Below are positions 1,528 to 5,918 of a DNA stretch of 6,926 bases, piece after piece. The stretch lies in the NCBI RefSeq assembly GCF_003334385.1, contig NZ_QOWN01000075.1, one strand, 5' to 3'. A program made the position numbers and the translations under genes. The DNA comes from Escherichia coli (lineage in GTDB: Bacteria > Pseudomonadota > Gammaproteobacteria > Enterobacterales > Enterobacteriaceae). The notes under the pieces were generated by a model. The model did not search any database, had not been told where the DNA came from, and saw nothing but the letters and a program-made list of their open reading frames with translations. Within the stretch, counting starts at the first letter, position 1. Each line of letters begins with the position of its first letter.

Positions 1528-1893
1528 TAATGTCTTCATCGCAATTAAACCTGTTGACATGCGCCGGGGCATCGACTCACTGACGCAGTATATACATCGA
1601 CATGGCATGAGGGAGCCGCCTTCGTCTTTGTTAACAAAGCCCGTTCGCGTATCAAAGTTCTCCGGTGGGATAAACACGGGGTGTGGTTGTGTACCCGCCG
1701 TCTGCACAAAGGCAGCTTCCGCTGGCCACGTGCAAATGACGCTGCCTGGCACCTCACTCCCGACGAGTTTAACTGGCTGATTGCCGGTGTTGACTGGCAG
1801 CAGGTTAAGGGACATGACCTGACGAAATGGGTCTGGCAGAATGAACCTGAACTGCGCCCTGAAAACACGCAAAATACACTGCTAACTCAGTGA
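1514..1893 (+). pseudogene. tnpB: IS66-family TnpB (orf2), disrupted by an apparent single-base deletion (-1 frame change) near 1595-1605
   Basis: N-terminal part (MLSPDNVFIAIKPVDMRRGIDSLTQYI, with the conserved VDMR motif) is in the frame of ATG 1514. The conserved C-terminal part (EGAAFVFVNKARSRIKVLRWDKHGVWLCTRRLHKGSFRWP...) is in the -1 frame, ending at TGA 1891-1893. That downstream frame has no start codon of its own before 1681. Confidence 0.7.
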
Positions 1894-1899
1894 AAAATA

Positions 1900-3491
1900 A
1901 TGAATATCCGTATCTGGAGTGGTATACTCCCCTGTATGGATATCTCCGCTCTCAACACCACGAATGACATCGAAAAACTGCGTGCTATGGCACTTGCCAT
2001 GGTACAAGAAGTCATGTCGGAGAATGCCGAAAAAGAGCGGGAATTACTGGAGAAAAGCCGGCGCATCCAGCTTCTGGAAGAAATGCTGAAACTGGTTCGT
2101 CAACAGCGCTTCGGAAAAAAATGTGAAACGCTGGCTGGTATGCAACGCTCCCTGTTCGAAGAAGATGTTGATGCCGATATCGCCGCGCTTACCGCACATC
2201 TGGATAAACTGCTCCCGCAATCCCCTGAAGAAGACGAAAAAGCGTCCCGTTCACGCCCGATACGCAAACCCTTACCGGTTCATCTTCCACGGGTGGAAAA
2301 AATTATCCAGCCGGACACTGACCATTGCCCTGAATGTGACGAGCCGCTGCACTATATCCGCGATGCGGTGAGTGAAAAGCTGGAGTATATTCCCGCTCAC
2401 TTTGTGGTGAACCGTTATGTCCGTCCACAATACAGTTGTCCCTGTTGCCAGAAGGTGTTCAGCGGTGAAATGCCGGCACATATCCTCCCGAAAAGTGCCG
2501 TTGAGCCATCAGTCATCGCACAGGTGATCATCAATAAATACGGTGACCACCTGCCTCTGTATCGCCAGCAACAGGTCTTTGCCCGTTCAGATGTCGGGCT
2601 GCCCGTCAGTTCGATGGCTGACATGGTTGGCGCGGCGGGTGCCGCATTATCGCGTTACTCCATCGCGAGTTGATAAACCGTCCGGTGGTGCATGCAGATG
2701 AGACTACCCTGAAGATCCTGAACACGAAGAAAGGCGGTAAATCCTGCTCCGGTTATCTGTGGGCATACATCAGTGGAGAAAGGACGGGACCGTCAGTTGT
2801 GTGCTTCGACTGCCGGACCGGACGTAGCCATGAGTATCCTGAAAACTGGCTTCAGGGCTGGGGCGGGACGCTGGTTGTCGACGGACATAAAGCTTACCGG
2901 ACTCTGGCAAACAAAGTGCCGGAGATCACGCTGGCCGGATGCTGGGCCCATGCCCGCAGGGGCTTCGCCGACCTGTATAAAATCAGTAAAGATCCACGGG
3001 CTGCCATAGCCGTGAAGAAAATCGCGGGGTTGTACCGTCTTGAGAAGAAGATCAGTAGCCGCCCCGTGGAAAAAATCCGCCAGTGGCGACAGCGTTATGC
3101 CCGTCCGATACTGGAAGAACTGTGGTCATGGCTTGAAGAGCAGGAACCGCAATGTTCTCCGGGAAGGGCATTACACAAAGCCATTGCCTATGCGCTGTCT
3201 CATCGCGTGGAACTGAGCCGCTTCCTGGAAGATGGTGCGGTGCCGCTGGATAATAATGTGTGTGAACGGGCCATCAAAAACGTGGTTCTGGGCAGAAAAT
3301 CGTGGCTGTTCGCCGGTTCGCAGATGGCGGGAGAACGCGCCGCGCAAATAATGTGCTTGCTGGAAACCGCGAAACGCAACGGTCTGGAGCCGCATGCCTG
3401 GTTGACAGACGTCCTGATGCGTCTGCCGGAGTGGCCGGAGGAGCGACTGGCAGAGTTGCTGCCTCTTGAGGGATTTACCTTCTCCGGGTGA
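1900..3491 (+). pseudogene. tnpC: IS66-family transposase TnpC (orf3), split by a -1 frame change near 2648-2656
   Basis: Upstream part (1900-2673) carries a leucine-zipper-like N-terminus and a CxxC...CxxC zinc ribbon (HCPECDEP...CPCCQKV). Downstream part (frame of 2670-3491) carries VHADETTLKIL, CWAHARR and DNNVCERAIK...GRKSWLF motifs. Joined with one extra base it would encode about 530 aa. An alternative start is ATG 1936. Confidence 0.8.
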
Positions 3492-3496
3492 GTGAT

Positions 3497-3564
3497 ACCT
3501 GCCGTCAGGTGTTCGTGCACCGGGCCATAACTTGCAGTCGGGAGTTGAACTCCTGACGGCAGGT
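3497..3564. repeat. Inverted repeat with 13-bp perfect arms (ACCTGCCGTCAGG / CCTGACGGCAGGT) separated by 42 bp, immediately after the tnpC stop
   Basis: 3497-3509 is the exact reverse complement of 3552-3564. Confidence 0.8.
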
Positions 3565-3630
3565 TATGAGCCAGACCAGCAACCACGCGGGCTGACAGCG
3601 AATAAGAACCTGAATCAGCCCGGAGTCATT

Positions 3631-3712
3631 CCCGGGTCAGTACATCATCACCTGCTATTAATCCCCGAGTCAGTACTTCGCGGCCTGACGCGATCACCCT
3701 ACTCAGTACTTC
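3631..3712 (+). repeat. Three direct repeats, CCC-N3-TCAGTACWTC, at an exact 33-bp period inside the IS66 3' non-coding region
   Basis: TCAGTAC starts at 3637, 3670 and 3703, each preceded by a C-rich stretch. A degenerate fourth copy (GAGTCAT) lies at about 3622. Confidence 0.7.
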
Positions 3713-3826
3713 AGAGCCCGCCTCCGGTACCTGCCTGGCGATCGCCCCTGTGCAACAAAATAAATCAACCGTTATCAAACCACGATCGTTCGTATGCGCC
3801 GCCGATGACGCGCGCCTGAAAAACGC

Positions 3827-3853
3827 GTCAATATGAGTTCCCCGGAAGCTTAC
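3827..3853 (-). repeat. IS66-family right terminal inverted repeat (reverse complement GTAAGCTTCCGGGGAACTCATATTGAC)
   Basis: Pairs with 1111-1137 at 19 of 27 positions. Its outer end reads GTAAGC on the reverse strand, the terminus I recall as typical of the IS66 family. It is followed directly by the 8-bp duplication. Confidence 0.65.
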
Positions 3854-3861
3854 GCATTAAC
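3854..3861. repeat. Target-site duplication, right copy (GCATTAAC) of the IS66-family element
   Basis: Identical to 1103-1110 and directly abuts the right IS terminus. Confidence 0.8.
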
Positions 3862-3890
3862 AATAACATGATATTCATCACGGAGTGACT

Positions 3891-4091
3891 ATGTTACAGA
3901 TAGTCGGCGCGCTGATCCTGCTGATCGCAGGATTTGCCATTCTTCGCCTTTTGTTCAGAGCATTAATCAGCACGGCTTCTGCGCTGGCAGGGCTCATATT
4001 GCTGTGTCTGTTCGGCCCGGCCTTACTGGCTGGCTATATCACCGAACGCATAACCCGGTTGTTCCATATTCGCTGGCTGGCGTATTTCTGA
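3891..4091 (+). CDS. Hypothetical small membrane protein (66 aa, two predicted transmembrane helices)
   Basis: ATG 3891 is preceded by GGAG at 3882-3885 (5-nt spacer). The translation has two long hydrophobic stretches and coding-like codon usage. No family recognised. The ORF track start at 3885 is a GTG two codons upstream. Confidence 0.45.
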   Translation: MLQIVGALILLIAGFAILRLLFRALISTASALAGLILLCLFGPALLAGYITERITRLFHIRWLAYF

Positions 4092-4170
4092 CGATTGCCG
4101 GAATGATCATCAGCTTCATGTGGGGACTTGATGGTAAACATATCGCGCTGGTGCAAAATGGCATCTGAAT

Positions 4171-4279
4171 CGATCGCAGTTTGGCATTCGAATCGATCAT
4201 GATTTGGCATCCATCTCCGATCACAGTTTGGCATCACAATCGATCACGATTTGGCATGCTTCCGATCATTGATTGGCAT
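4171..4279 (+). repeat. IS21-family left-end multiple terminal repeats: five copies of CGATCNNNRTTTGGCAT at about 23-bp spacing, each containing GATC
   Basis: Copies at 4171-4187, 4194-4210, 4218-4234, 4241-4257 and 4263-4279. A partial copy (AAATGGCAT) lies at 4156-4164. Confidence 0.85.
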
Positions 4280-4353
4280 CCTGCCAGTCACTCCGGGAAT
4301 TAACTCTTTTCACCACAGTCTCCATTGCCGTGTTTAAACCAGTGGAGACGTCA

Positions 4354-5918
4354 ATGTCCAGAAAGAGAAAATCCAGGAGCACTATGGAAACCTGTTTTAA
4401 GATCCTTCAGCTCAAGTTCGACAAGAAGCTGACTAACCGTTGTATCGGACTGACGTTACACATCAGCGCCTCAACCGTTTTTGAGGTTCTTGCCCGCTTC
4501 AAAGCCTCTTCTCTGTCATGGCCATTACCTGCTGATATATCCCATGACACGCTGGAGAAACTCATTTTTCCGCCCAAAGACACCTTTGCATCAGAGCTTG
4601 TAATGCCTGACATGTTGTACTTCGATACGGAAATGAGAAAACCAGGTGTGACGCGGCAACTGTTGTGGATGGAATACAAGGCACAGGCGGGTGACAAAGC
4701 GATGGGATACTCGCACTTCTGCCGTTGCTACCGGGAGTGGAAAAAACGCGACGTCTCTCCATGCGCCAGGAGCATCGTGCCGGTGAAAAGCTTTTTATCG
4801 ACTTCTGTGGTCCTACGGTTTCTGTTATTAATCCGGACACCGGTGAGATACGCCGCGTGGCAATCTTCGTGGCCGTAATGGGGGCGTCCAACTATACCTA
4901 CGTTGAAGCGTGCGAAGGTCAGGACATGATGTCATGGTTAAATGCCCACAGCCGTTGCCTGACCTTCCTGGGCGGCGTACCGAAGCTGCTCATCCCCGAT
5001 AACCTCAGAAGCGCAGTGAAAAAGGCCGATCGATATGAGCCTGTCATCAACGACAGTTATCAGGCACTGGCTGAGCACTATGGCACGGTTATCATCCCGG
5101 CCCGACCACGCAAACCTAAAGATAAACCAAAAGCAGAAAACGGCGTCCTCATCGTCGAACGATGGCTTCTTGCCCGCATCCGTAATGAAACCTTCCACAC
5201 GCTCAGGGCGCTGAATGCGCGCCTTAGGGAGTTACTGACAGACATGAATAACCGGCCAATGAAGGGGTACGGCAATCAAACCCGTGCAGAACGCTTCCGC
5301 ATACTGGATGCGCCAGCACTCTCTCCGCTGCCTCTGGCACCTTATGAATACACGGAATACAAAGCTGTGAAGGTTGGCCCTGACTACCACGTTGAATATG
5401 CCCGTCACTGGTACTCCGTTCCACACGAACTGGTCGGTCAGCGTCTGTCACTGAAGGCGGGGCAGTCGGTGGTACAGCTCTGGCACAAGGGGCAGTGTGT
5501 GGCGCAACATCCGCGCAGCACACATGAATATAAACACACAACCAATCCGCTTCACATGCCAGAGCGCCACCGGCAGCACGGGACATGGACACCGGAACGC
5601 CTGATCGAGCAGGGAAAACGTACGGGCCCGTCCACAGGCCGGGTGGTTGAATCCATGCTGAAGGCAAAACCCCATCCGGAACTGGCTTATCGTGCAGTTC
5701 TGGGGCTGCTGGCACTTCAGAAAAAATACGGCCCGGAACGGCTGGAAAAGGCCTGTTACATTGCCCTGCACTATAACGCCCCTGACAGACGCTTTATCGA
5801 CAATCTGCTGCGTCACCATCGGGAGAACCTGGAGCTTCCATTATCCCGCCAGGGCGAACAACATCCGGCATATGCTTCAGAGCATGAAAACCTGCGTGGT
5901 CCGGGCTACTACCACTGA
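4354..5918 (+). pseudogene. istA: IS21-family transposase IstA, interrupted by a -1 frame change at an A6 run (4741-4746)
   Basis: The N-terminal HTH region (ILQLKFDKKLTNRCIGLTLHISASTV) is in the frame of ATG 4354 (GGAG at 4344-4347); a second in-frame ATG at 4384 is preceded by AGGAG at 4375-4379. The catalytic region (AGEKLFIDFCGP...) is in the -1 frame to TGA 5916-5918. One extra A in the A6 run would give a continuous ...CYREWKKTRRLSMRQEHRAGEK... of about 521 aa. Confidence 0.8.

Follow-up and report, generated by a model that had tools for sequence, protein, structure and literature searches.

Why should four reading frames in one short stretch of Escherichia coli DNA all be broken in such a way that a single added base would mend each of them? 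The question is raised by a 6,926-nt segment (contig NZ_QOWN01000075.1 of assembly GCF_003334385.1; the whole of this stretch is hereafter called the window), in which the breaks fall in tnpB and tnpC of an ISEc49-like insertion sequence (IS) of the IS66 family, in istA of an ISSso4-like element of the IS21 family, and in a yeeR-like island gene. A first-pass annotation, made from the letters of the window, had offered two explanations, either deletion-biased sequencing or assembly error, or true pseudogenisation. Upon comparing the window and a listing of its open reading frames (ORFs) with 5,426 complete E. coli genomes, we identify the window as part of a mosaic island that lies downstream of agn43, the gene for the autotransporter adhesin Ag43, and in which two insertion sequences have probably died in place. 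The four frame breaks are best read, on sequence comparison, as genuine inherited deletions of 13, 10, 4, and 1 bases, and they very probably reflect an ordinary process within the Ag43 island, in which two defunct IS copies and an island gene already broken by an IS decay step by step.

The four frame breaks are deletions of different sizes

The arrangement seen in the window is present in 10 complete E. coli genomes, which align with it over its whole length at 99.7% identity (6,940 bases, compared with 6,926 in the window); a 100% match was found in none of the 5,426. These relatives are ordinary E. coli with genomes of 5.0–5.4 Mb; their sources are surface water, wastewater, a frigatebird, and humans, and Norway, Mexico, and Germany are among the places of record. 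Alignment revealed 4 substitutions and just two indels between the window and the relatives, namely 10 bp after position 2651 and 4 bp after position 4078, both of them multi-base and outside homopolymers. All 28 homopolymer runs of at least 5 nt in the window have the same length as in the relatives.

We then examined each break in turn, searching for its junction as a 40-mer in all of the complete genomes and repairing the frame in silico. The tnpB lesion emerged upon alignment to the intact ISEc49 copies of HSP425 and CFT073 as a 13-bp deletion, which is also present in all 10 relatives; its junction occurs in exactly 10 complete genomes, those that share the locus. Adding the 13 bp back yielded a 130-aa TnpB identical to that of the HSP425 copy (L004; IS66_TnpB, 115 bits; cut-off 50). 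For tnpC, the intact 1,566-bp gene of two relatives (H1 and H7) served as the alignment reference, and repair of the 10-bp deletion gave a 521-aa TnpC that is 1 residue off the intact orthologue (transpos_IS66, 437 bits; cut-off 180). Intact ISSso4 copies contain the sequence GTGGAAAAAAACGCG (GTGG-A7-CGCG, i.e., with a run of seven A residues) and a single uninterrupted istA of 1,536 bp; the window has six (A6), and returning one A produced a 511-aa IstA that is 2 residues off the intact protein (transpos_IS21, 283 bits; cut-off 160). The A6 junction was found in 11 complete genomes (the 10 relatives and an independent copy in APEC E956), and istA is labelled "frameshifted" by the Prokaryotic Genome Annotation Pipeline (PGAP) in three of the relatives (H1, H7, and H8). 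Lastly, the yeeR-like gene, which codes for 838 aa when intact (WP_001328678.1), has lost one 4-bp CTGG unit between 4078 and 4079 from the repeat at 4075–4082, leaving an ORF of 66 aa that ends at 4091; with the 4 bp restored, the YeeR N-terminus was identical to that of the intact orthologue. The NCBIfam models for TnpA, TnpB, TnpC, IstA, IstB, and Ag43 scored above their curated cut-offs where whole proteins were available.

Thus, the first-pass annotation was correct in that a net gain of one base restores the frame at each of the four breaks, and the breaks in tnpB, tnpC, and istA (the A6 run at 4741–4746) are where it had placed them. The yeeR break, however, lies in the CTGG repeat and not at T3 4085–4087, and the claim that all of the disruptions are single-base deletions holds for istA alone. 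That claim had also overlooked the largest disruption in the window, the 2,638-bp IS21-family insertion that splits the yeeR-like gene.

The deletions recur in independent assemblies

The tnpB and istA lesions are base-identical in 10 independent complete genomes from varied sources, indicating that they are not artefacts of a sequencing platform. The tnpC and yeeR junctions each gave 0 matches among the 5,426 complete genomes. For tnpC, exact scans of the genome_contigs and metagenome_contigs collections for the deletion junction also returned 0 matches, and the 245-aa N-terminal fragment is not on record. Variants of TnpC of 257 aa and 268 aa led to a Logan contig (L015; ERR1948963_464), seen in 7 samples or runs, that holds both TnpC fragments; this independently assembled contig matches window positions 1027–3674 (2,648 nt) at 100% identity and has both the tnpB and the tnpC deletions. 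Another five contigs of metagenome or Logan origin (L010–L014) contain the exact 66-aa YeeR product and its DNA allele. The occurrence of the tnpC deletion in a contig seen in seven runs and of the yeeR allele in five contigs, together with the 28 unaltered homopolymers, leads us to reject systematic deletion-biased sequencing or assembly error, as far as these assemblies can tell.

A shared frame class arises by coincidence

Divided by 3, the deletion sizes (13, 10, 4, and 1) each leave a remainder of 1 (1 mod 3), and four such events in the same direction had been regarded as unusual. The chance that four frameshifting deletions fall into one class is 2 x (1/2)^4 = 1/8, a figure that rises further if 1-bp events are intrinsically commoner. 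A sister lineage (genomes G1/2, G6/7, and G8, and the draft GCA_000768465.1) has a tnpC broken by an independent deletion of 83 bp in place of the 10-bp one (window-equivalent positions 2188–2270; carried by contigs L003 (G1/2), L016, and L028), and 83 is 2 mod 3, the other class. The mechanisms differ as well: a tetranucleotide-repeat unit was lost in yeeR and a homopolymer slipped in istA, while inspection by eye of the 13-bp and 10-bp junctions found neither microhomology nor direct repeats, so that no common mechanism joins the four events. Since the chance is about 1/8, the ages and mechanisms of the deletions differ, and the 83-bp deletion provides a counterexample, the common frame class is a coincidence and is not significant. 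The four unlike events looked alike because a reading without a reference shows the net frame shift alone.

Probable stepwise decay of two insertion sequences and an island gene

In the ISEc49-like copy, three consecutive genes (tnpA, tnpB, and tnpC), the first two of which overlap where tnpB starts and tnpA stops, lie between imperfect terminal inverted repeats (GT..CGGGGAA). The TnpA of the window is identical to a widespread protein. The copy resembles ISEc49 as annotated by PGAP in CFT073, ATCC 25922, and HSP425, with which it shares the site downstream of agn43, the 8-bp target duplication GCATTAAC, the gene order, and ~98–99% DNA identity; after repair, TnpB is identical and TnpC differs by 1 residue. 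Unlike the intact element, it has the 13-bp tnpB and the 10-bp tnpC deletions, and it is accordingly a defective IS66-family member that encodes neither a full TnpB nor a full TnpC. The IS21-family copy resembles active ISSso4-like copies of E. coli chromosomes and plasmids (99.5–99.7% identity over 2.64 kb) in its TG...CA ends (TGC...GCA), its TTGGCAT terminal repeats (five at the left end), and its istA-istB layout; it differs from them in having A6, in 7 private single-nucleotide polymorphisms (SNPs) when compared with the active-copy consensus, and in a right target duplication that is 2 nt short.

In the yeeR 5′ region, the CTGG repeat (4067–4082; L001, L003, L004, and L010–L014) has three types of allele, which are CTGGCTGGCAGG in the intact 838-aa gene, CTGGCTGGCTGG in the H1 type, and CTGGCTGG in the frameshifted form. 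The frameshifted allele results in the 66-aa ORF and, with a restart at ATG 4118, in a 761-aa ORF, and is always linked to the synonymous 3977T. Four of the contigs with this short allele (L010, L011, L012, and L014) contain an island that has neither ISEc49 nor the IS21 element; the fifth (L013) has the IS21 element at the same yeeR site and lacks ISEc49.

These observations suggest a history in which an ISEc49 copy would have inserted between agn43 and the yeeR-like gene and an ISSso4-like copy inside the yeeR-like gene, with the four deletions becoming fixed at different times and by different mechanisms. The 13-bp tnpB deletion and the A7 to A6 slippage in istA would be old and ancestral to the whole lineage, the 10-bp tnpC deletion would be recent and limited to the sub-lineage of the window, and the loss of the CTGG unit would represent a circulating allele, present in IS-free islands too. 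A first hit would thus inactivate an element, its remaining genes would no longer be maintained, and sub-lineages would gather further independent deletions (10 bp here, 83 bp in the G1/2 type). IS679, a relative of IS66, reportedly requires all three genes for transposition; if this requirement applies to ISEc49, the tnpB hit alone would immobilise the element and leave tnpC unconstrained.

Bacterial mutation has a deletional bias, and every event being a deletion fits this bias. Deletional bias and the erosion of pseudogenes have reportedly been described for bacterial genomes, and the window resembles such cases in that all of its lesions are deletions (13, 10, 4, and 1 bases, as well as the 83 bases of the sister lineage and the 2 nt missing from the target duplication) and all lie in DNA outside host selection; we see no substantive difference, and regard the locus as a textbook local example. 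The phenomenon is ordinary, and standard annotation already marks these genes as "frameshifted" or pseudo.

Several points weigh against this history. The sequence in which the events took place and the loss of constraint that would follow a first hit are inferred, as is the read support at the two window-specific sites (tnpC and yeeR), which is taken from other assemblies. All four combinations exist for the presence or absence of ISEc49 with the presence or absence of the IS21 element, and likewise for the presence or absence of the IS21 element with the long or short yeeR allele; therefore, recombination has shuffled the markers of this island, and the data do not establish a history that is simple and linear. 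Moreover, the A6 copy may not be fully dead.

The A6 element has moved, and recoding is an improbable cause of the frame breaks

Active ISSso4 copies, which have A7, occupy 21–34 places per genome. The A6 copy, in comparison, is the sole ISSso4-like chromosomal copy in 7 of the 10 relatives, with two places in the other 3. Besides the yeeR site, two further insertion sites hold the A6 haplotype complete with its 7 private SNPs, at 100% identity over 2,638 bp; these two are on colicin-plasmid-like contigs that span the whole element and have proper duplications (TCTACAG in L017; CCTGCT in L018 and L024). An NCBI draft has the haplotype in a VgrG context (L032), and in L022 RHS genes adjoin a related A6 haplotype. 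The identity of the haplotype at several sites with target duplications indicates that the frameshifted element has evidently moved several times despite its frameshift. The private SNPs of the A6 lineage divide 5 to 5 into synonymous and non-synonymous changes, which is uninformative.

A mosaic A6 form at the argG-metY site (L035) is not counted as a further insertion site: in the complete genome VTB97074v the same junction is occupied by an intact A7 copy, and the mosaic haplotype of L035 may have come about through gene conversion or assembly-graph chimerism. No A7 twin of the A6 haplotype was found in the 5,426 complete E. coli genomes or in 72,556 plasmids (PLSDB). We also rejected VR50 (A7 with 4784T) as the A7 progenitor, its copy being truncated and ~99% identical, i.e., not the twin. 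In VR50 (L027, 4650–7304), an 884-aa coding sequence annotated as IS66 tnpC starts with an ISSso4-like istA segment (A7, 4784T) and, located near a Dr/Afa adhesin operon, looks like an IS-into-IS fusion ORF. The independent A6 istA of APEC E956 (L026, 2258–3792) is inserted elsewhere, flanked by a perfect duplication (CAGTAT), and has extra indels (+G, +T, and -CT), so that this copy is either more decayed or affected by long-read assembly errors.

Conventionally, the movement would be explained by intact ISSso4 copies acting in trans, or by copies undergoing gene conversion with one another. An alternative is that the A6 element is a self-attenuated yet autonomous IS21 variant that makes low levels of wild-type IstA, either because ribosomes slip by -1 in GTGG-AAAAAA-CGC or because an additional A is transcribed there. 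We consider this unlikely, although a -1 slip anywhere in the A6 run (candidate slip sequences GGGAGTGGAAAAAACGC and CCGGGAGTGGAAAAAACGCGAC) would yield the wild-type IstA sequence EWKKTRR.

More broadly, at least one of the frame breaks might be programmed recoding of the kind known from IS1 and IS3 (by -1 ribosomal frameshifting or by transcriptional slippage) and not damage, an explanation that we regard as improbable. IS1 (A6C) and IS3-family elements (A6G) use programmed -1 frameshifting on A-rich heptamers, and istA is similar in having an A6 run at the frame junction, where a -1 slip would rebuild the normal transposase; the presence of the haplotype at several insertion sites also speaks for recoding. 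However, the two-ORF layout of IS1 and IS3 is the conserved functional state in every active copy, whereas all proliferating ISSso4 copies have one uninterrupted A7 istA, and the two-frame layout is a rare derived allele that is not conserved in active copies, with A6 present in the 11 of 5,426 genomes given above and in 0 of the 72,556 PLSDB plasmids. The low chromosomal copy number of A6 in the relatives argues in the same direction. No frameshift-stimulating RNA fold was predicted downstream of the A6 run, where the RNA is no more stable than shuffled sequence (z = +1.19), and a paper on Leifsonia IS elements offers no precedent for frameshifting within istA, noting nothing beyond a purine-rich site that lies between istA and istB. 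The tnpB, tnpC, and yeeR sites are multi-base deletions with no slippery sequence.

Genome-wide decay and sequencing error are improbable causes of the lesions

Could the four lesions be a sample of a Shigella-like, genome-wide reductive decay, in which IS elements expand and pseudogenes form on a large scale? In its favour are the two IS elements and the four frameshifts within 7 kb, the presence of ISSso4 and ISEc49 relatives in Shigella, and the lack of an exact match to the window among complete E. coli RefSeq genomes, and still we hold it to be a poor candidate. The 10 closest relatives have genomes of ordinary size, and 7 of them have only the single chromosomal ISSso4-like copy; two of the lesions are older than the lineage of the window itself; and every lesion is confined to mobile or island DNA, with agn43 (3′ end), tnpA, and istB intact. 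The pseudogenisation that the first-pass annotation had allowed for is therefore real in the sense of inherited deletions, but narrower than proposed: it is local decay of dead mobile DNA, namely two IS copies and an IS-broken gene, and nothing in the window or its relatives points to genome-wide decay.

Deletion-biased sequencing or assembly error (homopolymer undercalling or similar) is scarcely credible, even though all four differences from the intact references are deletions, one of them is within an A-run, and two are unique to the window among the complete genomes, given that homopolymer artefacts of 454, Ion Torrent, and nanopore sequencing, which likewise produce net -1 breaks from missing bases, are 1–2 bases long, scattered across genes, and private to one assembly, unlike the events here, three of which are 4–13 bp and outside homopolymers, with no other homopolymer altered and all recurring in independent assemblies.

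Features of the window and of the surrounding island

The features are collected in Table 1. The imperfect duplication at the IS21/yeeR junction is common to all of the relatives; six sister IS copies have perfect 6-bp duplications, or 7-bp in one case. The Ag43 3′ end matches the NCBIfam model auto_Ag43 at profile positions 611–948. Genomes of the CFT073 (L005, 4877–7487) and ATCC 25922 type contain another IS66-family element, distinct from ISEc49 and with its tnpC frameshifted, between ISEc49 and yeeR, an interval that lies upstream of the IS21 insertion point inside yeeR in the lineage of the window.

Table 1. Coordinates of the features in the 6,926-nt window.
Feature	Position	Strand	Details
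agn43 (Ag43 autotransporter adhesin), 3′ end, intact	1..1019	+	no indel relative to relatives; alignment; PGAP in H1, H7, H12
ISEc49 target-site duplication, left, 8 bp, GCATTAAC	1103..1110	.	empty site in L010, L011, L014
ISEc49-like IS66-family element	1111..3853	+	2,743 bp; 2,766 bp in intact state; imperfect terminal inverted repeats
tnpA, intact, 109 aa	1198..1527	+	NCBIfam IS66 TnpA, 49.8 bits (cut-off 28)
tnpB pseudogene	1514..1893	+	13-bp deletion GGATGAACTCCGG between 1596 and 1597
tnpC (IS66 transposase) pseudogene	1936..3491	+	10-bp deletion TCCCCTGGCG between 2651 and 2652
ISEc49 target-site duplication, right, GCATTAAC	3854..3861	.	perfect match to left copy
yeeR-like island gene, 5′ fragment	3891..4151	+	
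IS21 insertion target-site duplication, left, CGCTGG	4146..4151	.	
ISSso4-like IS21-family element inside yeeR-like gene	4152..6789	+	2,638 bp; 2,639 bp in intact copies
istA pseudogene	4384..5918	+	A7 to A6 at 4741–4746; alternative ATG at 4354
istB helper ATPase, intact, 251 aa	5935..6690	+	IS21_help_AAA, 257 bits (cut-off 200)
IS21 insertion target-site duplication, right, degenerate GCGG	6790..6793	.	2 nt short of CGCTGG; empty site in L004
yeeR-like gene, part continuing downstream of the IS insertion	6794..6926	+	

Discussion

What appeared in the raw sequence to be a -1 signature is a set of four unrelated deletions of different ages in dead mobile DNA, which calls for caution in reading such patterns; it is neither a warning about assembly quality nor a sign of genome-wide decay. 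The locus provides a small and clean example of the stepwise erosion of inactivated insertion sequences, in which sub-lineages acquire different second hits under a deletional bias. Wider interest is limited to the istA-frameshifted IS21 haplotype, which evidently kept moving. If it is true that the A6 element moves without a helper, it would be the first recoding-dependent transposase of the IS21 family.

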